Source: Nemertoderma westbladi
Taxonomy: Eukaryota; Animalia; Xenacoelomorpha
DNA length: 38,543 nucleotides
NCBI GenBank assembly: GCA_032718475.1
Contig: JAUCBJ010001014.1
Location: forward strand, 1-38,543
Reading direction: 5' to 3'
Every line of letters begins with the position of its first letter. Position 1 is the first letter of the stretch. The notes beneath the pieces are model-generated. The model ran no database searches, was not told the DNA's origin, and saw only the letters and a program-made list of their open reading frames with translations. The position numbers were made by a program, and so were the translations under genes. Below, piece after piece: positions 1 through 38,524 of the stretch.

Positions 1-1000
1 AAGGAATGTCCGTTTGGTAAGGAATGTCAGTTTGGTAAGGAATGTCCGTTTGGTAAGGAATGTCCGTTTGGTAAGGAATGTCCGTTTGGTAAGGAATGTC
101 CGTTTGGTAAGGAATGTCCGTTTGGTAAGGAATGTCCGTTTGGTAAGTTAATGTCCGTTTGGTAAGGAATGTCCGTTTGGTAAGGAATGTCCGTTTGGTA
201 AGTTAATGTCCGTTTGGTAAGTTAATGTCCGTTTGGTAAGTTAATGTCCGTTTGGTAAGGAATGTCCGTTTGGTAAGGAATTTCCGTTTGGTAAGGAATG
301 TCCGTTTGGTAAGGAATGTCCGTTTGGTAAGGAATGTCCGTTTGGTAAGGAATGTCCATTTGGTAAGGAATGTCCGTTTGGTAAGGAATGTCCGTTTGGT
401 GAGGAATGTCCGTTTGGTGAGGAATGTCCGTTTGGTAAGGAATGTCCGTTTGGTAAGGAATGTCCGTTTGGTAATGAATGTCCGTTTGGTAAGGATTGTC
501 CGTTTGGTAAGGAATGTCCGTTTGGTAAGGAATGTCCGTTTGGTAAGGAATGTCCGTTTGGTAATGAATGTCCGTTTGGTAAGGAATGTCCGTTTGGTAA
601 GGAATGTCCGTTTGGTAAGGAATGTCCGTTTGGTAAGGAATGTCCGTTTGGTAAGGAATGTCCGTTTGGTAAGTAATGTCCGTTTGGTAAGGAATGTCCG
701 TTTGGTAAGGAATGTCCGTTTGGTAAGGAATGTCCGTTTGGTAAGGAATGTCCGTTTGGTAAGGAATGTCCGTTTGGTAAGGAATGTCCGTTTGGTAAGG
801 AATGTCCGTTTGGTAAGGAATGTCCGTTTGGTAAGGAATGTCCGTTTGGTAAGGAATGTCCGTTTGGTAAGGAATGTCAGTTTGGTAAGGAATCTCCGTT
901 TGGTAAGGAATGTCCGTTTGGTAAGGAATGTCCGTTTGGTAAGGAATGTCCTTTTAGTAAGGAATGTCCGTTTGGTAAGGAATGTCCGTTTGTTAAAGGA
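1..1000 (+). repeat. 18-bp minisatellite (GGAATGTCCGTTTGGTAA)n, about 55 copies, truncated by the window start; intronic
   Basis: Directly visible near-perfect tandem array. Four 19-bp variants have GTAAGTTAA (GT at 143, 198, 217, 236). Almost every unit contains TTG|GTAAG. Confidence 0.97.
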
Positions 1001-1214
1001 GTGTAGGTGTATATGGAGCCAATACCAACGCGCGGTCGAACTGCTAACGTCTGACATTATGCTCACACTGTGTATGCACGAGTCCATCTCAAGATAATTA
1101 GTTAATTATATTATTTAATATTTTGGACAAATTAAAATATTTAAGTGACGCCAAATTTAATAATGAATTTAAATACTAAATAGATTTTCTATTATTTTTT
1201 TTCATTAATTTAAG

Positions 1215-2065
1215 GCTTGGCACGATTTGTTGGAAACTGTAAGTCACGAACGGCCGCAGAGTCTGACGTTGTCCCGGGAGTGGGACGTCGGATCGGAGCA
1301 GTTCGAATGGGAGTTGGACCCGAGTGAGGGTCCCAGTCGCACGCGGCTGCGTCTACGACCCTCCAACGACCCCCCGTTGGCCTCCGCGTTCTATCTCCCG
1401 AACAAACGAACCCGACTCTCGAGCTCGGGGGTTTCCGACTCACATATCGACTATCTCTTCCGCGACTCGCCTCTCTCCCCGGACGCCTCCAACCTCCGGA
1501 ATAAACTCGTCACCCAGGAGGCCGCCGCTATCACCTACTCCGCCTACTGCACGCTGGTCACGCCATTCGCCGAATGCCGGCGAGAGTTCCTAATCGGCTC
1601 CAACGGGTTGTACTTCTTCCCGGAACACGACGAAGAAGTTATCAGATGCGAGTTCTCTTCGGTTCGCGAGATCCACAACCGGAGATACCTCCTCCGGGAC
1701 GTCGCCATGGAGATATTCCTAACGGACGGGCAGTCTCTACTTCTAGCCTTCGAATCTACAGATCAACGCGCCCAGGTCTACAAGCGAATCCTCGCCAACG
1801 AGCCGCCTTGTTTACTTAGCAACGACCAGAAGCTCTCCTTAGCAACAGCAGCCTGGCAACGAGGCGAGATAACAAACTTCGAGTATCTGACTCACGTAAA
1901 TAAATGCGCCGGACGAACGTTCAATGACCTCATGCAATATCCAGTGTTCCCATTCGTATTGGCCGATTACCATAGCAGCAGTTTGGATCTCAATAACACC
2001 AAAATTTACCGGAAACTCCACAAACCGATGCCAATTCAACACGAGAATAAAGAAGCTTACTTCCG
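1215..2065 (+). CDS. LYST: LYST-like exon A: pre-PH region, PH domain and start of BEACH
   Basis: Acceptor tttaAG at 1213-1214; reads [13 protein letters not shown]...[18 protein letters not shown]; donor GTTAGT at 2066 (phase 2). Overlaps ORF 1227..2090. Confidence 0.88.
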
Positions 2066-5000
2066 GTTAGTCAGTCCTACTTCCGGTTAGTGAAAACCCT
2101 ACTTCAGGGTAATAATAAGCTTACTTCCGTTTAGCTGAAGCTTACTTCCCCGGCTAGCCAGAAGCCTACTACCTGTTAGTTAGCAATAAGCTTGCCCCAG
2201 GACCTACTAGGATCGGCATGCTGCATTGCAGCTGCATTTTTAAGAATGCTGTGCCAGGCCCAGGTTAGCCAACAACGTACTTTCGGTTACTCAAGCTTAC
2301 TTCTGATTCCTCAGAAGCGCACTCTTACAATTCCCATTAAATTTCCTAATTTATAACTTTTAGGGAGAAATACCACGAAGTGGAAACATCTGACTGCGAC
2401 CCCATGGCCGAATTCGGGCCGTACCATTTCGGTTCGCTTTACAGTAACAGCGGGATTGTCTTACATTTCCTAATCCGGATGCTTCCATACACAAAGATGT
2501 TCCTTCGGTAAGTAACTTGCTACTTTCAACTAAAATATAGAACACATCGGAGCCTTTGGAGATGATGGTACATTAACAGTCACCTTTTCTAAATGCGTCC
2601 GGAGTTGGTTCGTTCGAAGGTTACGAGGTCTCATAGTCTTCCACACGACCAGTTCGGTTGGAATTCACAATTTACAAACTGCGGCACTCCTTAAAGCACC
2701 TTGTCCTGCTGTCCCTGACGAATTTGCCTCTAACTTTGTTTATTATTTATCATGTCCTTGTTGTAAGGAGTGACATGTTTGACACACCATCTAATATTTA
2801 TGTGGACGAGTTTTATACTGCCCCTGGATGGGACTACCAAAGATGGCAGCGAGCAAAGCGAGACTGTGCAGAAACACATCATACATGATACATCTAGGCG
2901 ATCCAATATACGTTGGCTTAGCAATTGGCAATCTTTAATGCCTGTTGTGAAAAAGATTGAAATGTATTATACGGTATAATATTCGCACATATCCCTATTC
3001 ATACTCCGGTATTTTTCTCCCCCGGGGGACTTTGAACTCATCTCCATTGACGTGCTTTGCACTTAGAGTCTTGATAGATTAGGGTGAAACCTTCCGATCA
3101 GCTGATCACTGTCACTTCTGGTCCCCTATTCTTATAACTGTCGGTTTATAAATTTACCTACCAGCTAGACCGTAAGAATACCGTAAGCGTACCTGTAAGA
3201 TAATTAATTAGTTACTTAATTATAATTATTGTTATCGTACATTTATATTGTTACGTCCTAATAAATTAATGTTGCTTAATTTCCTGTTTGCTTTAGTTAC
3301 CAGGACGACAACTTCGACCTTCCAGACAGAACGTTCCACAGTTTGGCGACGACATGGAGTCTTTCCTCTCGGGAGTCCAACACCGATGTAAAGGAACTCA
3401 TTCCGGAGTTCTTTATGATGCCGGAGTTCCTGGAGAACCAAAACGGTTTGTACATTCTATTTTACATTATCTTTACCGTAAAGCTGATCGAGTAACAAAT
3501 TATATACACATTTATTTATCTGATATTATTGGCTGCAGCTTATCAAATATTTTCCGTATAAATGGTGCTTTTGCTTTCTTTCGTTCTAGAATTTGATTTC
3601 GGTGTTCGTCAGAACGGTAAGACTATTGGGGACGTGGAACTCCCCCCATGGTGCCATGGCGACGCGAGGTTGTTTATACTGGTACACCGTCAGATCTTGG
3701 AGTCGAGTCATGTGTCGGGTCATCTTCATCACTGGATGGATCTCATATTCGGTTACAAACAGAAAGGTCGCGCAGCTGTTGATGCTATTAATTGCTTTAG
3801 ACCAATGGTATGTTTATGTAAAGCTTAGCATTGGTTTAGTATTGTAGTAACAGTAAGTATGAAAACTCTGAAACTTTTATCGCGGTTTTGGCTGGGTTTT
3901 GACTGATCGCGGTTTTGACTGGGTTATGGTTTAGCGCTAGATGGCGCTGAGATAGCTAGTTAGTCTATTTCTGTATATATTTATACAGTTTCACATATAG
4001 ACCCTCGCGCTGCCCGAATGCCCCACAACGTGTTACTTTGCGTAGATTGTATACAAACGATATTCGGATTAGGCTACACCTAACCGGTAGGGTGTTCTCT
4101 TATGGAATCAGATTTAATAACTATAATCTTTTTTGTTGTCGCAGTTGTATTACGGGTTGGATCTGGAAGCGATTAAAGATCCCAATGATCGTAAGGCTGT
4201 AGAAAGTATGATCAAATCGTACGGCCAAACACCTAAACAGTTGTTCGTTAACCAACATCCTAAGAGACAGGTGAGTGAGTGAGTGCGGTCAAACACATAA
4301 ACAGTTGTTCGTTAACCAACATCCTTAGAGACAGGTGAGTGAATGAGTACGGTCAAACACATAAACAGTTGTTCGTTAACCAACATCCCAAGAGACAGGT
4401 GAGTGAGTGAGTGCGGTCAAACACATAAACAGTTGTTCGTTAACCAACATCCTTAGAGACAGGTGAGTGAGTGAGTATACGGTCAAACACATAAACATTT
4501 GTTCGTTAACCAACATCCTTAGATACATCGGTGAGTGAGTGAGTACGGTCAAACACATAAACTGTTGTTCGTTAACCAACATCCTTAGAGACAGGTGAGT
4601 GAGTGAGTATACGGCCAAACACCTAAACAGTTGTTCGTTAACCAACATCCTAAGAGACAGGTGAGTGAGTGAGTATACGGTCAAACACATAAACAGTTGT
4701 TCGTTAACCAACATCCTTAGAGACATCGGTGAGTGAGTGAGTACGGTCAAACACATAAACAGTTGTTCGTTAACCAACATCCTTAGATACAGGTGAGTGA
4801 GTGAGTATACGGCCAAACACCTAAACAGTTGTTCGTTAACCAACATCCTAAGAGACAGGTGAGTGAGTGAGTATACGGTCAAACACATAAACAGTTGTTC
4901 GGTAACCAACATCCTTAGAGACAGGTGAGTGAGTGAGTACGGTCAAACACATAAACAGTTGTTCGTTAACCAACATCCCAAGAGACAGGTGAGTGAGTGA

Positions 5001-8000
5001 GTACGGTCAAACTCATAAACAGTTGTTCGGTAACCAACATCCTTAGAGACAGGTGAGTGAGTGAGTACGGTCAAACACATAAACAGTTGTTCGTTAACCA
5101 ACATCCCAAGAGACAGGTGAGTGAGTGAGTGCGGTCAAACACATAAACAGTTGTTCGTTAACCAACATCCTAAGAGACAGGTGAGTGAGTGAGTACGGTC
5201 AAACACATAAACAGTTGTTCGGTAACCAACATCCTTAGAGACAGGTGAGTGAGTGAGTACGGTCAAACACATAAACAGTTGTTCGTTAACCAACATCCCA
5301 AGAGACAGGTGAGTGAGTGAGTGCGGTCAAACACATAAACAGTTGTTCGTTAACCAACATCCTTAGAGACAGGTGAGTGAGTGAGTACGGTCAAACACAT
5401 AAACTGTTGTTCGTTAACCAACATCCTTAGAGACAGGTGAGTGAGTGAGTATACGGCCAAACACCTAAACAGTTGTTCGTTAACCAACATCCTAAGAGAC
5501 AGGTGAGTGAGTGAGTACGGTCAAACACATAAACAGTTGTTCGGTAACCAACATCCTTAGAGACAGGTGAGTGAGTGAGTACGGTCAAACACATAAACAG
5601 TTATTCGTTAACCAACATCCCAAGAGTCAGGTGAGTGAGTGAGTACGGTCAAACTCATAAACAGTTGTTCGGTAACCAACATCCTTAGAGACAGGTGAGT
5701 GAGTGAGTACGGTCAAACACATAAACAGTTGTTCGTTAACCAACATCCCAAGAGACAGGTGAGTGAGTGAGTATACGGTCAAACACATAAACTGTTGTTC
5801 GTTAACCAACATCCTTAGAGACAGGTGAGTGAGTGAGTATACGGCCAAACACCTAAACAGTTGTTCGTTAACCAACATCCTAAGAGACAGGTGAGTGAGT
5901 GAGTACGGTCAAACACATAAACAGTTGTTCGGTAACCAACATCCTTAGAGACAGGTGAGTGAGTGAGTATACGGCCAAACACCTAAACAGTTGTTCGTTA
6001 ACCAACATCCTAAGAGACAGGTGAGTGAGTGAGTACGGTCAAACACATAAACAGTTGTTCGGTAACCAACATCCTTAGAGACAGGTGAGTGAGTGAGTAT
6101 ACGGCCAAACACCTAAACAGTTGTTCGTTAACCAACATCCTAAGAGACAGGTGAGTGAGTGAGTACGGTCAAACACATAAACTGTTGTTCGTTAACCAAC
6201 ATCCTTAGAGACAGGTGAGTGAGTGAGTATACGGCCAAACACCTAAACAGTTGTTCGTTAACCAACATCCTAAGAGACAGGTGAGTGAGTGAGTACGGTC
6301 AAACACATAAACAGTTGTTCGGTAACCAACATCCTTAGAGACAGGTGAGTGAGTGAGTACGGTCAAACACATAAACAGTTGTTCGTTAACCAACATCCCA
6401 AGAGACAGGTGAGTGAGTGAGTACGGTCAAACTCATAAACAGTTGTTCGGTAACCAACATCCTTAGAGACAGGTGAGTGAGTGAGTACGGTCAAACACAT
6501 AAACAGTTGTTCGTTAACCAACATCCCAAGAGACAGGTGAGTGAGTGAGTGCGGTCAAACACATAAACAGTTGTTCGTTAACCAACATCCTAAGAGACAG
6601 GTGAGTGAGTGAGTACGGTCAAACACATAAACAGTTGTTCGGTAACCAACATCCTTAGAGACAGGTGAGTGAGTGAGTACGGTCAAACACATAAACAGTT
6701 GTTCGTTAACCAACATCCCAAGAGACAGGTGAGTGAGTGAGTGCGGTCAAACACATAAACAGTTGTTCGTTAACCAACATCCTTAGAGACAGGTGAGTGA
6801 GTGAGTACGGTCAAACACATAAACTGTTGTTCGTTAACCAACATCCTTAGAGACAGGTGAGTGAGTGAGTATACGGCCAAACACCTAAACAGTTGTTCGT
6901 TAACCAACATCCTAAGAGACAGGTGAGTGAGTGAGTACGGTCAAACACATAAACAGTTGTTCGGTAACCAACATCCTTAGAGACAGGTGAGTGAGTGAGT
7001 ACGGTCAAACACATAAACAGTTATTCGTTAACCAACATCCCAAGAGTCAGGTGAGTGAGTGAGTACGGTCAAACTCATAAACAGTTGTTCGGTAACCAAC
7101 ATCCTTAGAGACAGGTGAGTGAGTGAGTACGGTCAAACACATAAACAGTTGTTCGTTAACCAACATCCCAAGAGACAGGTGAGTGAGTGAGTATACGGTC
7201 AAACACATAAACAGTTGTTCGTTAACCAACATCCCAAGAGACAGGTGAGTGAGTGAGTACGGTCAAACTCATAAACAGTTGTTCGGTAACCAACATCCTT
7301 AGAGACAGGTGAGTGAGTGAGTACGGTCAAACACATAAACAGTTGTTCGTTAACCAACATCCCAAGAGACAGGTGAGTGAGTGAGTACGGTCAAACTCAT
7401 AAACAGTTGTTCGGTAACCAACATCCTTAGAGACAGGTGAGTGAGTGAGTACGGTCAAACACATAAACAGTTGTTCGTTAACCAACATCCCAAGAGACAG
7501 GTGAGTGAGTGAGTACGGTCAAACACATAAACAGTTGTTCGTTAACCAACATCCTTAGAGACATCGGTGAGTGAGTGAGTACGGTCAAACACATAAACAG
7601 TTATTCGTTAACCAACATCCTAAGAGACAGGTGAGTGAGTGAGTACGGTCAAACACATAAACAGTTGTTCGTTAACCAACATCCCAAGAGACAGGTGAGT
7701 GAGTGAGTACGGTCAAACTCATAAACAGTTGTTCGGTAACCAACATCCTTAGAGACAGGTGAGTGAGTGAGTACGGTCAAACACATAAACAGTTGTTCGT
7801 TAACCAACATCCCAAGAGACAGGTGAGTGAGTGAGTACGGTCAAACTCATAAACAGTTGTTCGGTAACCAACATCCTTAGAGACATCGGTGAGTGAGTGA
7901 GTACGGTCAAACTCATAAACAGTTGTTCGGTAACCAACATCCCAAGAGACAGGTGAGTGAGTGAGTACGGTCAAACTCATAAACAGTTGTTCGGTAACCA

Positions 8001-11000
8001 ACATCCTTAGAGACAGGTGAGTGAGTGAGTACGGTCAAACACATAAACAGTTGTTCGTTAACCAACATCCTTAGAGACATCGGTGAGTGAGTGAGTACGG
8101 TCAAACTCATAAACAGTTGTTCGGTAACCAACATCCCAAGAGACAGGTGAGTGAGTGAGTACGGTCAAACTCATAAACAGTTGTTCGGTAACCAACATCC
8201 TTAGAGACAGGTGAGTGAGTGAGTACGGTCAAACACATAAACAGTTGTTCGTTAACCAACATCCTAAGAGACAGGTGAGTGAGTGAGTACGGTCAAACAC
8301 ATTAACCAAACAGTTGTTCGGTAACCAACATCCTTAGAGACAGGTGAGTGAGTGAGTACGGTCAAACACATAAACAGTTGTTCGTTAACCAACATCCTTA
8401 GAGACATCGGTGAGTGAGTGAGTACGGTCAAACTCATTAACCAAACAGTTGTTCGGTAACCAACATCCTTAGAGACAGGTGAGTGAGTGAGTACGGTCAA
8501 ACACATAAACAGTTGTTCGGTAACCAACATCCTTAGAGACATCGGTGAGTGAGTGAGTACGGTCAAACACATAAACAGTTGTTCGGTAACCAACATCCTT
8601 AGAGACATCGGTGAGTGAGTGAGTACGGTCAAACACATAAACAGTTGTTCGTTAACCAACATCCTTATAGAGACATCGGTGAGTGAGTGAGTACGGTCAA
8701 ACACATAAACAGTTGTTCGTTAACCAACATCCTTAGAGACAGGTGAGTGAGTGAGTACGGTCAAACACATAAACAGTTGTTCGTTAACCAACATCCCAAG
8801 AGACAGGTGAGTGAGTGAGTACGGTCAAACTCATAAACAGTTGTTCGGTAACCAACATCCTTAGAGACAAGTGAGTGAGTGAGTACGGTCAAACACATAA
8901 ACAGTTGTTCGTTAACCAACATCCCAAGAGACAGGTGAGTGAGTGAGTACGGTCAAACACATAAACAGTTGTTCGTTAACCAACATCCTTAGAGACATCG
9001 GTGAGTGAGTGAGTACGGTCAAACTCATAAACAGTTGTTCGGTAACCAACATCCTTAGAGACAGGTGAGTGAGTGAGTACGGTCAAACACATAAACAGTT
9101 GTTCGTTAACCAACATCCCAAGAGACAGGTGAGTGAGTGAGTACGGTCAAACACATAAACAGTTGTTCGGTAACCAACATCCTTAGAGACATCGGTGAGT
9201 GAGTGAGTACGGTCAAACACATAAACGGTTGTTCGTTAACCGACATCCCAAGAGACAGGTGAGTGAGTGAGTACGGTCAAACACCTAAACAGTTGTTCGT
9301 TAACCGACATCCTTAGAGACATCGGTGAGTGAGTGAGTACGGTCAAACACATAAACAGTTGTTCGTTAACCAACATCCTTATAGAGACATCGGTGAGTGA
9401 GTGAGTACGGTCAAACACATAAACAGTTGTTCGTTAACCAACATCCTTAGAGACAGGTGAGTGAGTGAGTACGGTCAAACTCATAAACAGTTGTTCGTTA
9501 ACCAACATCCTAAGAGACAGGTGAGTGAGTGAGTACGGTCAAACACATAAACAGTTATTCGTTAACCAACATCCTTAGAGACAGGTGAGTGAGTGAGTAC
9601 GGTCAAACACATAAACAGTTATTCGTTAACCAACATCCCAAGAGACAGGTGAGTGAGTGAGTACGGTCAAACACATAAACAGTTGTTCGGTAACCAACAT
9701 CCTTACAGACATCGGTGAGTGAGTGAGTACGGTCAAACACATAAACAGTTGTTCGGTAACCAACATCCTTAGAGACATCGGTGAGTGAGTGAGTACGGTC
9801 AAACACATAAACAGTTGTTCGTTAACCAACATCCTTAGAGACAGGTGAGTGAGTGAGTACGGTCAAACTCATAAACAGTTGTTCGTTAACCAACATCCTA
9901 AGAGACAGGTGAGTGAGTGAGTACGGTCAAACACATAAACAGTTATTCGTTAACCAACATCCTTAGAGACAGGTGAGTGAGTGAGTACGGTCAAACACAT
10001 AAACAGTTATTCGTTAACCAACATCCCAAGAGACAGGTGAGTGAGTGAGTACGGTCAAACACATAAACAGTTGTTCGTTAACCAACATCCTTAGAGACAG
10101 GTGAGTGAGTGAGTACGGTCAAACACATAAACAGTTATTCGTTAACCAACATCCTTAGAGACAGGTGAGTGAGTGAGTACGGTCAAACACATAAACAGTT
10201 ATTCGTTAACCAACATCCCAAGAGACAGGTGAGTGAGTGAGTACGGTCAAACACATAAACAGTTGTTCGGTAACCAACATCCTAAGAGACAGGTGAGTGA
10301 GTGAGTACGGTCAAACACATAAACAGTTATTCGTTAACCAACATCCTTAGAGACAGGTGAGTGAGTGAGTACGGTCAAACACATAAACAGTTATTCGTTA
10401 ACCAACATCCCAAGAGACAGGTGAGTGAGTGAGTACGGTCAAACACATAAACAGTTGTTCGGTAACCAACATCCTTAGAGACATCGGTGAGTGAGTGAGT
10501 ACGGTCAAACACATAAACAGTTGTTCGGTAACCAACATCCTTATAGAGACATCGGGAGTGAGTGAGTACGGCCAAACACATAACAGTTGTTCGTTAACCA
10601 ACATCCTTAGAGACATCGGTGAGTGAGTGAGTACGGTCAAACACATAAACAGTTGTTCGTTAACCAACATCCTTAGAGACATCGGTGAGTGAGTGAGTAC
10701 GGCCAAACACATAAACAGTTGTACGTTAACCAACATCCTTATAGAGACATCGGGAGTGAGTGAGTACGGTCAAACACATAAACAGTTGTTCGTTAACCAA
10801 CATCCTTATAGAGACATCGGGAGTGAGTGAGTACGGTCAAACACATAAACAGTTGTACGTTAACCAACATCCTTATATAGAGACATCGGTGAGTGAGTGA
10901 GTACGGTCAAACACATAAACAGTTGTTCGTTAACCAACATCCTTATAGAGACATCGGTGAGTGAGTGAGTATACGGTCAAACACATAAACAGTTGTTCGT

Positions 11001-14000
11001 TAACCAACATCCTTAGAGACATCGGTGAGTGAGTGAGTACGGTCAAACACATAAACAGTTGTTCGTTAACCAACATCCTTAGAGACATCGGTGAGTGAGT
11101 GAGTACGGTCAAACACATAAACAGTTGTTCGTTAACCAACACCCTTAGAGACAGGTGAGTGAGTGAGTACGGTCAAACACATAAACAGTTGTTCGTTAAC
11201 CAACACCCTTAGAGACATCGGGAGTGAGTGAGTACGGTCAAACACATAAACAGTTGTTCGTTAACCAACATCCTTAGAGACATCGGTGAGTGAGTGAGTA
11301 CGGTCAAACACATAAACAGTTGTTCGTTAACCAACATCCTTAGAGACATTGGTGAGTGAGTGAGTATACGGTCAAACACATAAACAGTTGTTCGTTAACC
11401 AACATCCTTAGAGACATCGGTGAGTGAGTGAGTATACGGTCAAACACATAAACAGTTGTTCGTTAGCCAACATCCTTAGAGACATCGGTGAGTGAGTGAG
11501 TACGGTCAAACACACAAACAGTTGTTCGTTAACCAACATCCTTAGAGACATCGGTGAGTGAGTGAGTACGGTCAAACTCATAAACAGTTGTTCGTTAACC
11601 AACATCCTTAGAGACATTGGTGAGTGAGTGAGTATACGGTCAAACACATAAACAGTTGTTCGTTAACCAACATCCTTAGAGACATTGGTGAGTGAGTGAG
11701 TATACGGTCAAACACCTAAACAGTTGTTCGTTAACCAACATCCTTAGAGACATCGGTGAGTGAGTGAGTACGGTCAAACTCATAAACAGTTGTTCGTTAA
11801 CCAACATCCTTAGAGACATCGGTGAGTGAGTGAGTACGGTCAAACACATAAACAGTTGTTCGTTAACCAACATCCTTAGAGACATCGGTGAGTGAGTGAG
11901 TATACGGTCAAACACATAAACAGTTGTTCGTTAACCAACATCCTTAGAGACATCGGTGAGTGAGTGAGTATACGGTCAAACACATAAACAGTTGTTCGTT
12001 AACCAACATCCTTATAGAGACATCGGGAGTGAGTGAGTACGGTCAAACACATAAACAGTTGTTCGTTAACCAACATCCTTATAGAGACATCGGGAGTGAG
12101 TGAGTACGGTCAAACACATAAACAGGTGTTCGTTAACCAACACCCTTAGAGACAGGTGAGTGAGTGACTATACGGTCAAACACATAAACAGTTGTACGTT
12201 AACCAACATCCTTATAGAGACATCGGGAGTGAGTGAGTACGGCCAAACACATAAACAGTTGTTCGTTAACCAACACCCTTAGAGACAGGTGAGTGAGTGA
12301 GTATACGGTCAAACACATAAACAGTTGTTCGTTAACCAACATCCTTATAGAGACATCGGTGAGTGAGTGAGTACGGTCAAACACATAAACAGTTGTTCGT
12401 TAACCAACATCCTTAGAGACATCGGTGAGTGAGTGAGTATACGGTCAAACACATAAACAGTTGTTCGTTAACCAACATCCTTAGAGACATCGGTGAGTGA
12501 GTGAGTATACGGTCAAACACATAAACAGTTGTACGTTAACCAACATCCTTATAGAGACATCGGGAGTGAGTGAGTACGGTCAAACACATAAACAGTTGTT
12601 CGTTAACCAACATCCTTATAGAGACATCGGTGAGTGAGTGAGTACGGTCAAACACATAAACAGTTGTACGTTAACCAACATCCTTATAGAGACATCGGAA
12701 GTGAGTGAGTACGGTCAAACACATAAACAGTTGTTCGTTAACCAACATCCTTAGAGACAGGTGAGTGAGTGAGTATACGGTCAAACACATAAACAGTTGT
12801 ACGTTAACCAACATCCTTATAGAGACATCGGTGAGTGAGTGAGTATACGGTCAAACACATAAACAGTTGTACGTTAACCAACATCCTTAGAGATAGGTGA
12901 GTGAGAGAGTACGGTCAAACACATAAACAGTTGTACGTTAACCAACATCCTTATAGAGACATCGGGAGTGAGTGAGTACGGTCAAACACATAAACAGTTG
13001 TTCGTTAACCAACATCCTTAGAGACATCGGTGAGTGAGTGAGTATACGGTCAAACACATAACAGTTGTTCGTTAACCAACATCCTTATAGAGACATCGGT
13101 GAGTGAGTGAGTACGGTCAAACACATAAACAGTTGTACGTTAACCAACATCCTTATAGAGACATCGGGAGTGAGTGAGTACGGTCAAACACATAAACAGT
13201 TGTACGTTAACCAACATCCTTATAGAGACATCGGGAGTGAGTGAGTACGGTCAAACACATAAACAGTTGTTCGTTAACCAACATCCTTAGAGACAGGTGA
13301 GTGAGTGAGTACGGTCAAACACATAAACAGTTGTTCGTTAACCAACATCTTTAGAGACATCGGTGAGTGAGTGAGTACGGTCAAACACATAAACAGTTGT
13401 TCGTTAACCAACATCCTTAGATACATCGGTGAGTGAGTGAGTACGGTCAAACACATAACAGTTGTTCGTTAACCAACATCCTTATAGAGACATCGGTGAG
13501 TGAGTGAGTACGGTCAAACACATAAACAGTTGTACGTTAACCAACATCCTTATAGAGACATCGGGAGTGAGTGAGTACGGTCAAACACATAAACAGTTGT
13601 TCGTTAACCAACATCCTTAGAGACAGGTGAGTGAGTGAGTATACGGTCAAACACATAAACAGTTGTTCGTTAACCAACATCCTTAGAGACATCGGTGAGT
13701 GAGTGAGTACGGTCAAACACATAAACAGTTGTTCGTTAACCAACATCCTAAGAGACATCGGTGACTGAGTGAGTATACGGTCAAACACATAAACAGTTGT
13801 ACGTTAACCAACATCTTTATAGAGACATCGGTGAGTGAGTGAGTATACGGTCAAACACATAAACAGTTGTTCGTTAACCAACATCCTTAGAGACATCGGT
13901 GAGTGAGTGAGTATACGGTCAAACACCTAAACAGTTGTTCGTTAACCAACATCCTTAGAGACATCGGTGAGTGAGTGAGTACGGTCAAACACATAAACAG

Positions 14001-20000: not shown

Positions 20001-23000
20001 GTGAGTACGGTCAAACACATAAACAGTTGTTCGTTAACCAACATCCTTATAGAGACATCGGTGAGTGAGTGAGTACGGTCAAACACATAAACAGTTGTAC
20101 GTTAACCAACATCCTTATAGAGACATCGGGAGTGAGTGAGTACGGTCAAACACATAAACAGTTGTTCGTTAACCAACATCCTTAGAGACAGGTGAGTGAG
20201 TGAGTATACGGTCAAACACATAAACAGTTGTACGTTAACCAACATCCTTATAGAGACATCGGTGAGTGAGTGAGTATACGGTCAAACACATAAACAGTTG
20301 TACGTTAACCAACATCCTTAGAGATAGGTGAGTGAGAGAGTACGGTCAAACACATAAACAGTTGTACGTTAACCAACATCCTTATAGAGACATCGGGAGT
20401 GAGTGAGTACGGTCAAACACATAAACAGTTGTTCGTTAACCAACATCCTTAGAGACATCGGTGAGTGAGTGAGTATACGGTCAAACACATAACAGTTGTT
20501 CGTTAACCAACATCCTTATAGAGACATCGGTGAGTGAGTGAGTACGGTCAAACACATAAACAGTTGTACGTTAACCAACATCCTTATAGAGACATCGGGA
20601 GTGAGTGAGTACGGTCAAACACATAAACAGTTGTACGTTAACCAACATCCTTATAGAGACATCGGGAGTGAGTGAGTACGGTCAAACACATAAACAGTTG
20701 TTCGTTAACCAACATCCTTAGAGACAGGTGAGTGAGTGAGTACGGTCAAACACATAAACAGTTGTTCGTTAACCAACATCTTTAGAGACATCGGTGAGTG
20801 AGTGAGTACGGTCAAACACATAAACAGTTGTTCGTTAACCAACATCCTTAGATACATCGGTGAGTGAGTGAGTACGGTCAAACACATAACAGTTGTTCGT
20901 TAACCAACATCCTTATAGAGACATCGGTGAGTGAGTGAGTACGGTCAAACACATAAACAGTTGTACGTTAACCAACATCCTTATAGAGACATCGGGAGTG
21001 AGTGAGTACGGTCAAACACATAAACAGTTGTTCGTTAACCAACATCCTTAGAGACAGGTGAGTGAGTGAGTATACGGTCAAACACATAAACAGTTGTTCG
21101 TTAACCAACATCCTTAGAGACATCGGTGAGTGAGTGAGTACGGTCAAACACATAAACAGTTGTTCGTTAACCAACATCCTAAGAGACATCGGTGACTGAG
21201 TGAGTATACGGTCAAACACATAAACAGTTGTACGTTAACCAACATCTTTATAGAGACATCGGTGAGTGAGTGAGTATACGGTCAAACACATAAACAGTTG
21301 TTCGTTAACCAACATCCTTAGAGACAGGTGAGTGAGTGAGTACGGTCAAACTCATAAACAGTTGTTCGTTAACCAACATCCTTAGATACATCGGTGAGTG
21401 AGTGAGTACGGTCAAACACATAAACAGTTGTTTGTTAACCAACATCCTTAGAGACAGGTGAGTGAGTGAGTACGGTCAAACTCATAAACAGTTGTTCGTT
21501 AACCAACATCCTTAGAGACATCGGTGAGTGAGTGAGTATACGGTCAAACACATAAACAGTTGTTCGTTAACCAACATCCTTAGAGACATCGGTGAGTGAG
21601 TGAGTACGGTCAAACACATAAACAGTTGTTCGTTAACCAACATCCTTAGAGACATCGGTGAGTGAGTGAGTATACGGTCAAACACATAAACAGTTGTTCG
21701 TTAACCAACATCTTTAGAGACATCGGTGAGTGAGTGAGTACGGTCAAACACATAAACAGTTGTTCGTTAACCAACATCCTTAGATACATCGGTGAGTGAG
21801 TGAGTACGGTCAAACACATAACAGTTGTTCGTTAACCAACATCCTTATAGAGACATCGGTGAGTGAGTGAGTACGGTCACACACATAAACAGTTGTTCGT
21901 TAACCAACATCCTTAGAGACAGGTGAGTGAGTGAGTATACGGTCAAACACATAAGCAGTTGTTCGTTAACCAACATCCTTATAGAGACATCGGTGAGTGA
22001 GTGAGTACGGTCAAACACATAAACAGTTGTACGTTAACCAACATCCTTATAGAGACATCGGGAGTGAGTGAGTACGGTCAAACACATAAACAGTTGTTCG
22101 TTAACCAACATCCTTAGAGACAGGTGAGTGAGTGAGTATACGGTCAAACACATAAACAGTTGTTCGTTAACCAACATCCTTAGAGACATCGGTGAGTGAG
22201 TGAGTACGGTCAAACACATAAACAGTTGTACGTTAACCAACATCTTTATAGAGACATCGGTGAGTGAGTGAGTATACGGTCAAACACATAAACAGTTGTT
22301 CGTTAACCAACATCTTTAGAGACATCGGTGAGTGAGTGAGTACGGTCAAACACATAAACAGTTGTTCGTTAACCAACATCCTTAGATACATCGGTGAGTG
22401 AGTGAGTACGGTCAAACACATAACAGTTGTTCGTTAACCAACATCCTTATAGAGACATCGGTGAGTGAGTGAGTACGGTCAAACACATAAACAGTTGTTC
22501 GTTAACCAACATCCTTTAGACAGGTGAGTGAGTGAGTATACGGTCAAACACATAAGCAGTTGTTCGTTAACCAACATCCTTAGAGACATCGGTGAGTGAG
22601 TGAGTATACGGTCAAACACATAAACAGTTGTTCGTTAACCAACATCCTTAGAGACATCGGTGAGTGAGTGAGTACGGTCAAACACATAAACAATTGTTCG
22701 TTAACCAACATCCCAAGAGACAGGTGAGTGAGTGAGTACGGTCAAACACATAAACAGTTGTTCGTTAACCAACATCCTTAGAGACATCGGTGAGTGAGTG
22801 AGTACGGTCAAACACATAAACAGTTGTTCGTTAACCAACATCCTTAGAGACATCGGTGAGTGAGTGAGTACGGTCAAACACATAAACAGTTGTTCGTTAA
22901 CCAACATCCTTAGAGACATCGGTGAGTGAGTGAGTACGGTCAAACACATAAACAGTTGTTCGTTAACCAACACCCTTAGAGACAGGTGAGTGAGTGAGTA

Positions 23001-26000
23001 TACGGTCAAACACATAAACAGTTGTACGTTAACCAACATCCTTATAGAGACATCGGGAGTGAGTGAGTACGGCCAAACACATAAACAGTTGTTCGTTAAC
23101 CAACACCCTTAGAGACAGGTGAGTGAGTGAGTATACGGTCAAACACATAAACAGTTGTACGTTAACCAACATCCTTATAGAGACATCGGGAGTGAGTGAG
23201 TACGGCCAAACACATAACAGTTGTTCGTTAACCAACATCCTTATAGAGACATCGGTGAGTGAGTGAGTACGGTCAAACACATAAACAGTTGTTCGTTAAC
23301 CAACATCCTTAGAGACATCGTTGAGTGAGTGAGTATACGGTCAAACACATAAACAGTTGTTCGTTAACCAACACCCTTAGAGACAGGTGAGTGAGTGAGT
23401 ACGGTCAAACACATAAACAGTTGTTCGTTAACCAACATCCTTAGAGACATCGGTGAGTGAGTGAGTACGGTCAAACACATAAACAGTTGTTCGTTAACCA
23501 ACATCCTTAGAGACATCGGTGAGTGAGTGAGTACGGTCAAACACATAAACAGTTGTTCGTTAACCAACATCCTTAGAGACATCGGTGAGTGAGTGAGTAT
23601 ACGGTCAAACACATAAACAGTTGTACGTTAACCAACATCCTTAGAGACAGGTGAGTGAGTGAGTACGGTCAAACACATAAACAGTTGTTCGTTAACCAAC
23701 ATCCTTAGAGACATCGGTGAGTGAGTGAGTACATTCAAACTCATAAACAGTTGTTTGTTAACCAACATCCTGAGAGACAGGTGAGTGAGTGAGTATACGG
23801 TCAAACACATAAACAGTTGTTCGTTAACCAACATCCTTAGAGACATCGGTGAGTGAGTGAGTACGGTCAAACACATAAACAGTTGTTCGTTAACCAACAT
23901 CCTTAGAGACATCGGTGAGTGAGTGAGTATACGGTCAAACACATAAACAGTTGTTCGTTAACCAACATCCTTAGAGACATCGGTGAGTGAGTGAGTACGG
24001 TCAAACACATAAACAGTTGTACGTTAACCAACATCCTTATAGAGACATCGGGAGTGAGTGAGTACGGTCAAACACATAAACAGTTGTTCGTTAACCAACA
24101 TCCTTAGAGACATCGGTGAGTGAGTGAGTACATTCAAACTCATAAACAGTTGTTTGTTAACCAACATCCTGAGAGACAGGTGAGTGAGTGAGTATACGGT
24201 CAAACACATAAACAGTTGTTCGTTATTCAACATCCTGAGAGACAGGTGAGTGAGTGAGTATACGGTCAAACACATAAACAGTTGTTCGTTAACCAACATC
24301 CTTAGAGACATCGGTGAGTGAGTGAGTATACGGTCAAACACATAAACAGTTGTTCGTTAACCAACATCCTTAGAGACATCGGTGAGTGAGTGAGTACGGT
24401 CAAACACATAAACAGTTGTACGTTAACCAACATCCTTATAGAGACATCGGGAGTGAGTGAGTACGGCCAAACACATAACAGTTGTTCGTTAACCAACATC
24501 CTTATAGAGACATCGGTGAGTGAGTGAGTACGGTCAAACACATAAACAGTTGTTCGTTAACCAACATCCTTAGAGACATCGGTGAGTGAGTGAGTATACG
24601 GTCAAACACATAAACAGTTGTTCGTTAACCAACACCCTTAGAGACATCGGTGAGTGAGTGAGTACATTCAAACTCATAAACAGTTGTTTGTTAACCAACA
24701 TCCTGAGAGACAGGTGAGTGAGTGAGTATACGGTCAAACACATAAACAGTTGTTCGTTAACCAACATCCTTAGAGACATCGGTGAGTGAGTGAGTACGGC
24801 CAAACACATAAACAGTTGTTCGTTAACCAACATCCTTATAGAGACATCGGTGAGTGAGTGAGTACGGCCAAACACATAAACAGTTGTTCGTTAACCAACA
24901 GCCTTAGAGACATCGGTGAGTGAGTGAGTATACGGTCAAACACATAAACAGTTGTTCGTTAACCAACATCCTTAGAGACATCGGTGAGTGAGTGAGTATA
25001 CGGTCAAACACATTTATGTGTTTGACCGTATACTCACTCACAACTGTTTATAAACAGTTGTTCGTTAACCAACATCCTTATAGAGACATCGGTGAGTGAG
25101 TGAGTACGGTCAAACACTTAAACAGTTGTACGTTAACCAACATCCTTAGAGACATCGGTGAGTGAGTGAGTATACGGTCAAACACATAAACAGTTGTTCG
25201 TTAACCAACATCCTTAGAGACATCGGTGAGTGAGTGAGTACGGTCAAACACATAAACAGTTGTACGTTAACCAATATCCTTAGAGACATCGGTGAGTGAG
25301 TGAGTATACGGTCAAACACATAAACAGTTGTACGTTAACCAACATCCTTAGAGACATCGGTGAGTGAGTGAGTACGGTCAAACACATAAACAGTTGTACG
25401 TTAACCAACATCCTTAGAGACAGGTGAGTGAGTGAGTACGGTCAAACACATAAACAGTTGTTCGTTAACCAACATCCTGAGAGACAGGTGAGTGAGTGAG
25501 TATACGGTCAAACACATAAACAGTTGTTCGTTAACCAACATCCTTAGAGACATCGGTGAGTGAGTGAGTACGGTCAAACTCATAAACAGTTGTTCGTTAA
25601 CCAACATCCTGAGAGACAGGTGAGTGAGTGAGTATACGGTCAAACACATAAACAGTTGTTCGTTAACCAACATCCTTAGAGACATCGGTGAGTGAGTGAG
25701 TACGGTCAAACTCATAAACAGTTGTTCGTTAACCAACATCCTTAGAGACATCGGTGAGTGAGTGAGTATACGGTCAAACACATAAACAGTTGTTCGTTAA
25801 CCAACATCCTTAGAGACATCGGTGAGTGAGTGAGTACGGTCAAACTCATAAACAGTTGTTCGTTAACCAACATCCTTATATAGAGACATCGGTGAGTGAG
25901 TGAGTATACGGTCAAACACATAAACAGTTGTTCGTTAACCAACATCCTTAGAGACATCGGTGAGTGAGTGAGTACGGTCAAACTCATAAACAGTTGTTCG

Positions 26001-29000
26001 TTAACCAACATCCTGAGAGACAGGTGAGTGAGTGAGTATACGGTCAAACACATAAACAGTTGTTCGTTAACCAACATCCTTAGAGACATCGGTGAGTGAG
26101 TGAGTACGGTCAAACTCATAAACAGTTGTTCGTTAACCAACATCCTTAGAGACATCGGTGACTGAGTGAGTATACGGTCAAACACATAAACAGTTGTTCG
26201 TTAACCAACATCCTTAGAGACATCGGTGAGTGAGTGAGTACGGTCAAACTCATAAACAGTTGTTCGTTAACCAACATCCTTATATAGAGACATCGGTGAG
26301 TGAGTGAGTATACGGTCAAACACATAAACAGTTGTTCGTTAACCAACATCCTTATAGAGACATCGGTGAGTGAGTGAGTACGGTCAAACACATAAACAGT
26401 TGTACGTTAACCAACATCCTTAGAGACATCGGTGAGTGAGTGAGTACGGTCAAACTCATAAACAGTTGTTCGTTAACCAACATCCTGAGAGACAGGTGAG
26501 TGAGTGAGTATACGGTCAAACACATAAACAGTTGTTCGTTAACCAACATCCTTAGAGACATCGGTGAGTGAGTGAGTACGGTCAAACACATAAACAGTTG
26601 TTCGTTAACCAACATCCTTAGAGACATCGGTGAGTGAGTGAGTATACGGTCAAACACATAAACAGTTGTTCGTTAACCAACATCCTTTATAGAGACATCG
26701 GTGAGTGAGAGAGTACGTTCAAACACATAAACAGTTGTTCGTTAACCAACATCCTTAGATACATCGGTGAGTGAGTGAGTACGGTCATACACATAAACAG
26801 TTGTTCGTTAACCAACATCCTTAGAGACATCGGTGAGTGAGTGAGTACGGTCAAACACATAAACAGTTGTTCGTTAACCAACATCCTTATAGAGACATCG
26901 GTGAGTGAGTGAGTACGGTCAAACACATAAACAGTTGTTCGTTAACCAACATCCTTAGAGACATCGGTGAGTGAGTGAGTACATTCAAACTCATAAACAG
27001 TTGTTTGTTAACCAACATCCTGAGAGACAGGTGAGTGAGTGAGTATACGGTCAAACACATAAACAGTTGTTCGTTAACCAACATCCTGAGAGACAGGTGA
27101 GTGAGTGAGTATACGGTCAAACACATAAACAGTTGTTCGTTAACCAACATCCTTAGAGACATCGGTGAGTGAGTGAGTATACGGTCAAACACATAAACAG
27201 TTGTTCGTTAACCAACATCCTTAGAGACATCGGTGAGTGAGTGAGTACGGTCAAACACATAAACAGTTGTACGTTAACCAACATCCTTATAGAGACATCG
27301 GGAGTGAGTGAGTACGGCCAAACACATAACAGTTGTTCGTTAACCAACATCCTTATAGAGACATCGGTGAGTGAGTGAGTACGGTCAAACACATAAACAG
27401 TTGTTCGTTAACCAACATCCTTAGAGACATCGGTGAGTGAGTGAGTATACGGTCAAACACATAAACAGTTGTTCGTTAACCAACACCCTTAGAGACAGGT
27501 GAGTGAGTGAGTACGGTCAAACACATAAACAGTTGTTCGTTAACCAACATCCTTAGAGACATCGGTGAGTGAGTGAGTACATTCAAACTCATAAACAGTT
27601 GTTTGTTAACCAACATCCTGAGAGACAGGTGAGTGAGTGAGTATACGGTCAAACACATAAACAGTTGTTCGTTAACCAACATCCTTAGAGACATCGGTGA
27701 GTGAGTGAGTACGGCCAAACACATAAACAGTTGTTCGTTAACCAACATCCTTATAGAGACATCGGTGAGTGAGTGAGTACGGCCAAACACATAAACAGTT
27801 GTTCGTTAACCAACAGCCTTAGAGACATCGGTGAGTGAGTGAGTATACGGTCAAACACATAAACAGTTGTTCGTTAACCAACATCCTTAGAGACATCGGT
27901 GAGTGAGTGAGTATACGGTCAAACACATTTATGTGTTTGACCGTATACTCACTCACAACTGTTTATAAACAGTTGTTCGTTAACCAACATCCTTATAGAG
28001 ACATCGGTGAGTGAGTGAGTACGGTCAAACACATAAACAGTTGTACGTTAACCAACATCCTTAGAGACATCGGTGAGTGAGTGAGTATACGGTCAAACAC
28101 ATAAACAGTTGTACGTTAACCAACATCCTTAGAGACATCGGTGAGTGAGTGAGTACGGTCAAACACATAAACAGTTGTACGTTAACCAACATCCTTAGAG
28201 ACATCGGTGAGTGAGTGAGTATACGGTCAAACACATAAACAGTTGTACGTTAACCAACATCCTTAGAGACAGGTGAGTGAGTGAGTACGGTCAAACACAT
28301 AAACAGTTGTTCGTTAACCAACATCCTGAGAGACAGGTGAGTGAGTGAGTATACGGTCAAACACATAAACAGTTGTTCGTTAACCAACATCCTTAGAGAC
28401 ATCGGTGAGTGAGTGAGTACGGTCAAACTCATAAACAGTTGTTCGTTAACCAACATCCTGAGAGACAGGTGAGTGAGTGAGTATACGGTCAAACACATAA
28501 ACAGTTGTTCGTTAACCAACATCCTTAGAGACATCGGTGAGTGAGTGAGTACGGTCAAACTCATAAACAGTTGTTCGTTAACCAACATCCTTAGAGACAT
28601 CGGTGAGTGAGTGAGTATACGGTCAAACACATAAACAGTTGTTCGTTAACCAACATCCTTAGAGACATCGGTGAGTGAGTGAGTACGGTCAAACTCATAA
28701 ACAGTTGTTCGTTAACCAACATCCTTATATAGAGACATCGGTGAGTGAGTGAGTATACGGTCAAACACATAAACAGTTGTTCGTTAACCAACATCCTTAG
28801 AGACATCGGTGAGTGAGTGAGTACGGTCAAACTCATAAACAGTTGTTCGTTAACCAACATCCTGAGAGACAGGTGAGTGAGTGAGTATACGGTCAAACAC
28901 ATAAACAGTTGTTCGTTAACCAACATCCTTAGAGACATCGGTGAGTGAGTGAGTACGGTCAAACTCATAAACAGTTGTTCGTTAACCAACATCCTTAGAG

Positions 29001-32000
29001 ACATCGGTGAGTGAGTGAGTATACGGTCAAACACATAAACAGTTGTTCGTTAACCAACATCCTTAGATACATCGGTGAGTGAGTGAGTACGGTCAAACTC
29101 ATAAACAGTTGTTCGTTAACCAACATCCGTATATAGAGACATCGGTGAGTGAGTGAGTATACGGTCAAACACATAAACAGTTGTTCGTTAACCAACATCC
29201 TTATAGAGACATCGGTGAGTGAGTGAGTACGGTCAAACACATAAACAGTTGTACGTTAACCAACATCCTTAGAGACATCGGTGAGTGAGTGAGTACGGTC
29301 AAACTCATAAACAGTTGTTCGTTAACCAACATCCTGAGAGACAGGTGAGTGAGTGAGTATACGGTCAAACACATAAACAGTTGTTCGTTAACCAACATCC
29401 TTAGAGACATCGGTGAGTGAGTGAGTACGGTCAAACACATAAACAGTTGTTCGTTAACCAACATCCTTAGAGACATCGGTGAGTGAGTGAGTATACGGTC
29501 AAACACATAAACAGTTGTTCGTTAACCAACATCCTTTATAGAGACATCGGTGAGTGAGAGAGTACGTTCAAACACATAAACAGTTGTTCGTTAACCAACA
29601 TCCTTAGATACATCGGTGAGTGAGTGAGTACGGTCATACACATAAACAGTTGTTCGTTAACCAACATCCTTAGAGACATCGGTGAGTGAGTGAGTACGGT
29701 CAAACACATAAACAGTTGTTCGTTAACCAACATCCTTATAGAGACATCGGTGAGTGAGTGAGTACGGTCAAACACATAAACAGTTGTTCGTTAACCAACA
29801 TCCTTATAGAGACATCGGTGAGTGAGTGAGTACGGCCAAACACATAAACAGTTGTTCGTTAACCAACATCCTTAGAGACATCGGTGAGTGAGTGAGTACG
29901 GTCAAACACATAAACAGTTGTTCGTTAACCAACATCCTTAGAGACATCGGTGAGTGAGTGAGTACGGTCAAACACATAAACAGTTGTTCGTTAACCAACA
30001 TCCTTATAGAGACATCGGTGAGTGAGTGAGTACGGTCAAACACCTAAACAGTTGTTCGTTAACCAACATCCTTAGAGACATCGGTGAGTGAGTGAGTACG
30101 GTCAAACACATAAGCAGTTGTTCGTTAACCAACATCCTTAGAGACATCGGTGAGTGAGTGAGTACGGTCAAACACCTAAACAGTTGTTCGTTAACCAACA
30201 TCCCAAGAGACAGGTGAGTGAGTGAGTACGGTCAAACACCTAAACAGTTGTTCGTTAACCAACATCCCAAGAGACAGGTGAGTGAGTGAGTACGGTCAAA
30301 CCCATAAACAGTTGTTCGTTAACCAACATCCCAAGAGACAGGTGAGTGAGTGAGTACGGTCAAACACATAAACAGTTGTTCGTTAACCAACATCCCAAGA
30401 GTCAGGCGAGTGAGTGAGTACGGTCAAACACATAAACAGTTGTTCGTTAACCAACATCCTTAGAGACAGGTGAGTGAGTGAGTACGGTCAAACACATAAA
30501 CAGTTGTTCGTTAACCAACATCCCAAGAGACAGGTGAGTGAGTGAGTACGGTCAAACACATAAACAGTTGTTCGTTAACCAACATCCCAAGAGTCAGGCG
30601 AGTGAGTGAGTACGGTCAAACACATAAACAGTTGTTCGTTAACCAACATCCCAAGAGACAGGTGAGTGAATATAAAATAACTTAACTAAACGACGTTCAA
30701 ATCTAGAAGATTAATTAGCGGTAGGGTCTTAGTCAATTACATTTTCTTCAATTCAATTACATATCATGCCAATTCAATTAAATTCGATATTACATCTGTA
30801 ATTCGTGATCAAAAATAATAATTACCGCGGTAATAATTTGCCTATCTAACCGCTATTTATTTCATTTATTGTTAGGTACAGCAAAAGATTGACGAATTGT
30901 CGAGCCACGGGAAATCCTCATGTAACATTAAACCTTTGTGGGACGTGTTCGGATTGAATTGGGGCCAATACGTTGGTAGGTTTGTTGCTTTATGCCAATA
31001 TGTCGGTAGGTTTGTCGATATGACAATATATCGGTAAGTTTGTTGCTATGACAATATATCGGCAAGTTTGTTGCTACGCCAATATATCGGTAAGATTATT
31101 GATATGCCTATATAGCGGCAGGTTTGTTGCTATGCCAACGGCAAATTTATTATCTTTAAATTCATTTAGGTTCTCCTGGAATGCCTGACCCTCAGGTTGT
31201 TTGGCACACGTTGTGCAAAAAAACAATTGCCCGCTTGGTTGCCTTGGAAACTGGGGAAATGGTAGGGCTCTCAGACAGTGTACATCTACTAGTCGCATAC
31301 AGTTACAGTAACGGTGAGTTCCATACATACAATTCGATGGTGTTTTATTTTTATCATAACCACTCAACACTCAAAAACCTAATTGTTCAGGGGAGCATTT
31401 TTCTACAAGTCCCCTATGGTACCTAAGAGATAATTTTTGGTTTCATAAGGTAAAACACCACAATTAGGATTTGTAGTGACATTTAACCAATTTATCGATG
31501 TTTTCTTAGGATTTGAGTGGTTATGCAAAATGTTTTCACTTAAATTGTGATTTTTCATAACGACATATCTATTAATATGTTAGGCATACGAACAAAACAA
31601 TCAGTGAAATCTGTCCGAGACAGTCTTTTCATGAACTGCTAACTATCTTTCCTCCTATCCATCACCTTCGGCTCCATAAAACCTGGACTTCATGACCAAT
31701 TCAGTGCATTGTTTGAACAAACACAATTACCGGTATTCAATTAAATGTCAATTAAAAATGTAAAATATTTATTTAATCTGAAATCTGAAAAATTAGTCAT
31801 GTAAAGAAGTACTTATAGTAGTTACAATTCGAATTTCCCGCCCATTGATAGTATATTGAGTCTGTAAGGGACGAATTTTAATCACCATCTCCTTATCTGT
31901 AATGATGGGCTATGGGTTTAAGTGGTTATGAAAAAAAAGCCGTTTCCCTTGACTTAATGTAAAATTGGCATTTGAGTGGTTATGCAATTTTCTGAAATGC

Positions 32001-35003: not shown

Positions 35004-35152
35004 ATATTGTTTTCGCGAAGTAGGGCCTAATGAGTAATTAATACATGAATAATAATTGTAATTAATATTATACAATTTTTTGCCTGGAGATATTCCCACA
35101 TATATTTTTGTCGTCTGGAGATATTCCCACATATCTTATTGTCTTTATACAA

Positions 35153-35182
<30 letters not shown>
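35153..35182. repeat. Poly-G tract (30 G)
   Basis: Directly visible homopolymer. Confidence 0.9.
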
Positions 35183-35183
<1 letters not shown>

Positions 35184-35539
35184 AATGTAGGTAAACAATC
35201 ATTTTCATTTATTTGCCCCGGCGGCATTAATCGATAAAATGGTCGAACAACAGCAGCATAAGTATATTCTGAGGAAATTTCCGATTTTAACATCATAAAG
35301 CTCGGCGTTTCTCATGGTGTTGGTTGTTTCCAGCTGATATTTAGTGCCTTCCTTAGTAGTTTCGTGTAACAATCATTAATTCGTTGTTCAAGTGATTTCG
35401 TTAGTGTCAATCTTCAATGGACGCAAATTCTAAGTTTCTAAGTTAATAGTTTCATCAGCTCTCGTTATAGCTCTAGACATGTTACGATTATCATCTTGAG
35501 CTGTACAGTAATACACACCGGCTTATCATCAACAAAGTT

Positions 35540-38503: not shown

Positions 38504-38524
38504 GGGGGGGGGGGGGGGGGGGGG
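38504..38524. repeat. Poly-G tract (21 G)
   Basis: Directly visible homopolymer. Confidence 0.9.

Follow-up and report, generated by a model that had tools for sequence, protein, structure and literature searches.

Tandem arrays whose first unit spans an exon–intron boundary are known from genes of human and amphioxus. According to the accessible text of PMC1557585, this arrangement occurs in human F7 (a 37-bp variable number tandem repeat in intron 7), 6-16, CBS (intron 13), lamin B2 and PDGF (intron 4); the most upstream donor alone is used in F7, lamin B2 and PDGF, and the next two donors are also used in 6-16 and CBS. In amphioxus, 'mirage' minisatellites in Adh3, the globin genes BflGb6 and BflGb9, troponin C and PGBD5 are described at both 5' and 3' boundaries of introns that splice normally; their origin is termed unclear, and they are proposed to be general in the lineage (PMC3087553, PMC3902484, as far as the available portions go). 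The Rogers model, as cited in PMC3087553, attributes intron gain to tandem duplication of AG/GT proto-splice sites, and the available portion of PMC10078293 ties repeats to splicing variation but not to junction-spanning units. Here we describe three donor-spanning arrays in one gene, a putative LYST gene of the xenacoelomorph Nemertoderma westbladi, on contig JAUCBJ010001014.1 of assembly GCA_032718475.1. The whole stretch analysed (38,543 nucleotides, forward strand) is referred to below as the window.

An earlier reading made from the letters alone, hereafter the sequence-only reading, had reported four tandem arrays in this gene, and tandem-repeat analysis finds all of them (periods 18, 22, 66 and 28; Table 1). 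Arrays 2, 3 and 4 open across the end of an exon and the GT that follows it, at the donors after positions 2065, 4270 and 30975, just as had been proposed. For each of the 21 splice junctions in view, we counted copies of the junction-straddling 14-mer in the adjoining intron and compared the count with 300 shuffles. Copies exceeded chance at 3 of the 10 donors (2065, 4270 and 30975; p = 0.003, the lowest value that 300 shuffles allow) and at 0 of the 11 acceptors. At the remaining 7 donors and at every acceptor, p was >= 0.10 in this test, in keeping with the earlier remark that acceptors carry no equivalent arrays. A separate scan with junction 16-mers gave the same picture. Tandem units, a unit spanning the boundary and a repeated splice signal, which are among the marks of a junction-spanning ('mirage' or F7-type) minisatellite, are found in all three of these arrays, the boundary of array 4 being a predicted one.

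The three arrays are separate duplication events, because their units are unrelated and they are unlike in decay; the independence that had been suggested thus holds for the donor-spanning set. In array 2, the junction 14-mer recurs in 6 further copies (0.14 expected), a count reached in 0 of 2000 shuffles. This array is interrupted at 2204..2257 by 54 bp from a dispersed repeat of very high copy number; contigs of four runs carry this piece with unrelated flanks, and no second copy of it lies in the window. The piece is found in hundreds of contigs from DNA runs, many with a short CTA run ahead of it, an arrangement resembling the terminus of a mobile element. Array 4 comprises six donor-like units of 28–30 bp, with GT in 3 of the 5 extra copies and GC in 2 of the 5.

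RNA evidence comes from one 4,789-nt contig of the public run X3; none of the six candidate runs is on record as RNA. Across region 1001–4300, this contig skips four GT..AG introns exactly as modelled, indicating an origin from spliced mRNA. The contig leaves exon 1 at 2065, the first donor of array 2. It also matches 4144–4272 without a difference and then departs from the window sequence, showing that the first donor of array 3 (4270) is used, the two extra letters being a GT with which exon 6 also starts. The first donor is therefore used at 2065 and at 4270; minor isoforms may exist, as contigs drop rare forms. After 4272 the contig has 1,100 letters left, and exons 6–11 need 1,081 to reach the stop. 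We infer that 4270 is joined to 30876.

Use of later donors in arrays 2 and 3 would shift the frame or include a stop, with read-through meeting a stop at codon 9 in array 2 and at codon 4 in array 3. In array 4, the second donor (+30 nt, at 31005) is in frame, and the stretch it would add (30976–31005) is stop-free and codes for ten residues. This is the only spare donor in the gene able to give a full-length variant. We compared the two forms with the 17 of 120 listed proteins that were picked for reaching the C-terminus: the first-donor protein outscores the form with ten more residues against 16 of the 17, the exception being the Geodia protein P0027. Homology thus favours use of the first donor at 30975, and the +30-nt donor was rejected as the main form on this ground. 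The sequence-only reading had suggested that such arrays are tolerated through use of the upstream-most donor; this was seen directly, in one contig, at 2065 and 4270, and homology favours it at 30975.

Array 3 fills ~26.4 of the 26.6 kb of intron 5 and makes up ~80% of the visible gene span; the claim of transposon-independent intron growth is thus borne out at this locus. Its units, mostly 60–73 bp long, combine ~52 nt of exon end with ~12–14 nt of intron start. Unit 1 includes the last 52 nt of exon 5, which code for the conserved end of the BEACH domain, and this exact string occurs once in the array. Together, the single exact occurrence and the conserved coding in unit 1 identify the exon as source and the intron as copy, showing that conserved coding sequence was copied into the intron. 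An inserted satellite resembling the exon by chance was considered and rejected, as the exonic part encodes the BEACH end conserved in homologues. The units end in AG/GT in 133 of 391 cases, and no use of these ends as acceptors was seen.

Array 3 comprises at least 131 unit variants; those at its two edges are of similar type, and those in its middle differ from them. Nested kilobase duplications show as exact internal repeats, the longest of 1,196 bp, whose offsets range from 1,141 to 7,431 bp. A perfect 25-bp fold-back at 24988..25041, formed by an inverted copy of part of the unit (z = -10.7), is the mark of a template switch; it occurs again at ~27903–27956 as part of a 2,915-bp duplication. 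Such patterns are known in minisatellites as traces of unequal exchange and template switching. The internal repeats, edge pattern and duplicated fold-back are as expected from ordinary minisatellite turnover by these two routes. A similar pattern of edge units is described for amphioxus mirages in the accessible part of PMC3087553.

The host gene is represented by its 3' end, on the plus strand: the final 11 exons, numbered here within the window, comprise 856 codons, stop-free and all bounded by AG and GT. Eight exons were scanned against Pfam and 7 of the 8 gave a match, with PH_BEACH and Beach in exon 1, Beach continuing across exons 2–5 in profile order, and WD40 in exon 9. The closest proteins are animal LYST (40–44% identity over ~850 residues), with matches in vertebrates, an echinoderm, a lancelet and arthropods and no close relative among them; among 1.84 billion representatives, none matches above 46% over the whole of exon 1. 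By its C-terminal PH-BEACH-WD40 architecture and its best matches, the gene is classed as LYST, of the BEACH-domain family, an assignment made by sequence comparison rather than from a tree. Five of the ten exons that end at a donor (donors 2065, 2507, 3445, 31313 and 33432) have CG ahead of the GT, and GTTAGT is present at three donors. At position 2003, in exon 1, there is an A/C difference: run X1 agrees with the window, and X2 and X3 have C.

Table 1. Positions of the tandem arrays and of the LYST exons in the window
Feature	Coordinates	Strand	Description
Array 1	1..996	+	period 18, 55.1 copies, 96% matches; lies in the 3' part of the intron preceding exon 1 and extends beyond the window start
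Array 2	2058..2139	+	period 22, 3.8 copies, 69% matches
Array 2 with decayed copies	2053..2310	+	~20–22 bp copies of exon-1 end plus donor; first unit straddles 2065/2066
Array 3	4219..30669	+	period 66, ~398 copies (314.2+43.0+40.7), 93–94% matches
Array 4	30964..31138 (units to 31146)	+	period 28, 6.2 copies, 81% matches; first unit straddles 30975/30976
Exon 1	1215..2065	+	PH-BEACH and first part of BEACH; spliced contig uses its acceptor and first donor
Exon 2	2364..2507	+	BEACH; without junction repeat
Exon 3	3297..3445	+	BEACH; without junction repeat
Exon 4	3590..3807	+	BEACH; without junction repeat
Exon 5	4145..4270	+	end of BEACH; last 52 nt form exonic part of array 3 unit 1; first donor used in contig
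Exon 6	30876..30975	+	predicted from reading frame and homology
Exon 7	31170..31313	+	predicted
Exon 8	32858..32997	+	predicted
Exon 9	33191..33432	+	predicted; WD40
Exon 10	33541..33801	+	predicted
Exon 11	34033..34225 plus stop (to 34228)	+	predicted last coding exon

Array 1 ends ~215 nt upstream of the acceptor of exon 1 (1215), and its start lies beyond the window. It had been said to fit the donor pattern as well. In the X3 contig, the exon upstream of 1215 ends in codons EDLKIRK, joined to AWHDLL at 1215, and the lancelet protein P0121 is alike across the join (QDLSVRR then AWHAL). Read in the register TTTG/GTAAGG, array 1 scores 0 against this exon end, and it was rejected as an exon-end copy in that register, which leaves the count of four arrays out of four at donors unsupported. 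In a second register (junction at GTCCGT, with GTCAGT in 2 units), chosen after the fact, 6 of the 8 last exon letters match; a match this good is also reached by 75 of 2,557 coding 11-mers and by 391 of 20,000 shuffled units (~2–3% by chance). In the same test the array 3 consensus scores only 2 against its own exon end, so units drift. Anchoring at the acceptor was also rejected, given the distance of ~215 nt and 0 junction copies. Array 1 may be a junction copy that has drifted, an array whose start lies exactly at GT or an unrelated intronic repeat.

Our favoured explanation, which we consider likely, is that arrays 2, 3 and 4 are donor-spanning mirage minisatellites that began as short tandem duplications of local sequence, expanded through unequal exchange and were kept because the first donor is used. 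A short tandem duplication, produced by slippage during replication or repair, would happen to cross a donor. The first copy would still end the exon correctly and leave the mRNA unchanged, and the repeat would then grow or decay like any minisatellite, through unequal crossover or conversion. The arrays would be neutral under this scheme, and they are likely harmless. A filter of this kind alone predicts no excess over mid-intron DNA, and for this reason an exon-proximal seeding step was added: we assume, rather than observe, that seeding is commoner in or beside exons, with wholly exonic repeats being purged and donor-spanning ones surviving. G+C content is 51% in exons versus 24–44% in introns. 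The presence of three arrays in one gene may reflect a genome prone to repeat seeding, in addition to the flagging of this window for showing the pattern.

Several points weigh against this explanation. The first concerns chance. In a random-seeding model of the gene with its arrays collapsed (6,235 bp), the probability that every one of the three units (20, 64 and 28 bp) spans a donor, of which there are 10, is 1.3e-4, or 5e-4 if only tolerated positions are seeded, and for 3 of 4 arrays it is 5e-4 to 0.012; these values apply to a window picked from a very large scan for showing the pattern and are uncorrected for the picking. The filter alone fails to explain such a donor excess over neutral mid-intron DNA, and hence a bias of origin, or the picking of the window, must be added to it. 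Second, the overlaps at array ends are short and indistinguishable from partial last units, and the origin step is deduced rather than observed. Third, the RNA evidence is one contig from one run, of a kind that drops rare isoforms, and the array 4 donor and the join of 4270 to 30876 lie beyond the region (1001–4300) in which it was compared with the window. Finally, human 6-16 and CBS also splice from the next donors (PMC1557585).

A bias of origin could come from a donor-specific mutational process, in which breaks coupled to transcription or splicing, R-loops, or pausing of the polymerase at 5' splice sites seed duplications lineage-wide. The crossing of a donor by all three arrays with a visible start, at the chance values given above, would be accounted for, as would the excess that tolerance alone does not predict, and the second register of array 1 (6 of 8 exon letters, chosen afterwards) could be read the same way; the available text of PMC3087553, which calls the origin of mirages unclear, leaves room for such a process. 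We nonetheless judge it rather unlikely. The donor specificity proposed in the sequence-only reading is not demonstrated: 3 of 10 donors versus 0 of 11 acceptors falls short of significance (p = 0.09; with array 1 included, the one-sided value is 0.045 and the two-sided 0.09), and mirages have been reported from both boundaries (PMC3087553, PMC3902484). The chance values are uncorrected for the choice of the window, and R-loops or breaks are not directly observed in the present data. Nor do the units of arrays 1, 3 and 4 fold better than shuffles (z = 0.86, 1.14 and -0.53; array 2, z = -2.0), and hairpin-prone units were rejected as a common cause of the arrays on this basis.

A wider version of this idea holds that 5' splice sites act in this lineage as hot spots at which short tandem duplications arise by mutation, that many introns genome-wide open with donor-spanning minisatellites that can reach tens of kilobases and form a main, transposon-free driver of intron size, and that array 1 is a fourth, drifted case. 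We regard this combination as doubtful. No genome-wide count of arrays at donors versus acceptors, and nothing new on their origin or on a donor bias, was found in the literature searched, most subscription papers lying outside the search. A strong genome-wide donor excess, if true, would tie splice sites to mutation and provide a transposon-free route to intron growth. With three arrays in one gene, this genome is well suited to a count of arrays at donors, acceptors and mid-intron positions.

It is also conceivable that the spare donors are functional, such that use of downstream donors yields degraded RNA with a stop or frameshift, or that LYST expression is slowed or tuned by 26 kb of successive U1-binding sites. 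In array 3, the donor position still reads GT in 337 of the 391 units parsed, and GG, followed by further GTGAGT words, in another 52; purging of spare donors was rejected on these counts. The retained GTs, the early read-through stops in arrays 2 and 3, the in-frame second donor of array 4 and the downstream donors used in human 6-16 and CBS (PMC1557585) are all compatible with a function. However, the sole spliced contig shows first-donor use only, at 2065 and 4270, the donor letters of array 3 are conserved no better than the rest of the unit, and array 2 is decayed and broken up by the dispersed repeat. These data argue against a role for the spare donors, and we hold one to be very improbable.

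Least probable of all is that the large arrays are artefacts of assembly (collapsed or over-expanded repeats): the length of array 3 comes from the window sequence alone, with no contig spanning it, and the two runs that best cover the flanks may be the source of the window DNA, but contigs of X1 and X2 cover 1001–4255 with 0 and 1 differences, the summed depth of the array 3 unit is in the thousands versus 10–25 for single-copy flanks (a rough sign, not a copy number), and the unit variants and nested duplications are unlike the product of a collapse.

The window has other features as well. In intron 4, positions 3974–4031 are a piece of a second, lower-copy dispersed repeat, found at ~88% identity in other contigs of X1, X2 and X4. 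Downstream of the gene, a reading frame broken by several frameshifts and stops lies on the minus strand (~35500–36950); we take it, from its motifs, to resemble the reverse transcriptase of a non-long-terminal-repeat retrotransposon. The downstream region also holds a two-copy repeat of 31 bp and two pure G runs, 30 and 21 bases long (35084–35182, 38504–38524).

The sequence-only reading had put this locus forward as the best candidate for an undescribed system. The published cases in F7 and four other human genes (PMC1557585) and the amphioxus mirages (PMC3087553, PMC3902484) leave that claim unsupported, as the structure, its tolerance and the idea of a lineage-level phenomenon have all been published before. 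With the Rogers model (as cited in PMC3087553), the Nemertoderma arrays share tandem duplication across splice signals that alters gene structure without a transposon; they differ from it in that no new intron or exon is seen in LYST, where existing introns have only grown.

The F7-type human minisatellites are alike in that the first monomer lies across the boundary, the donor recurs within the intron and splicing starts from the most upstream copy (F7, lamin B2, PDGF). As described in the accessible text of PMC1557585, the human cases have one array per gene with 5–26 units, whereas Nemertoderma LYST has three arrays with up to ~398 units. Mutagenesis experiments tested oriented scanning in F7; in Nemertoderma LYST it is inferred. 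Amphioxus mirages resemble the present arrays in their boundary-spanning tandem units, like unit lengths (10–72 bp in Adh3), normal splicing and a turnover that sets the edge units apart. Mirages occur at both boundaries, in contrast to the donors-only placement of the three resolved LYST arrays, and BflGb6 reportedly has 3–6 units versus ~398 units and 26 kb for array 3. Moreover, the host is not close to Branchiostoma, the B. belcheri LYST being 42% identical over the coded region. What is notable here is the occurrence of three donor arrays in one gene and the 26-kb array among them, which is spliced past from the first of ~400 donors and hence provides a natural extreme test of first-donor selection.

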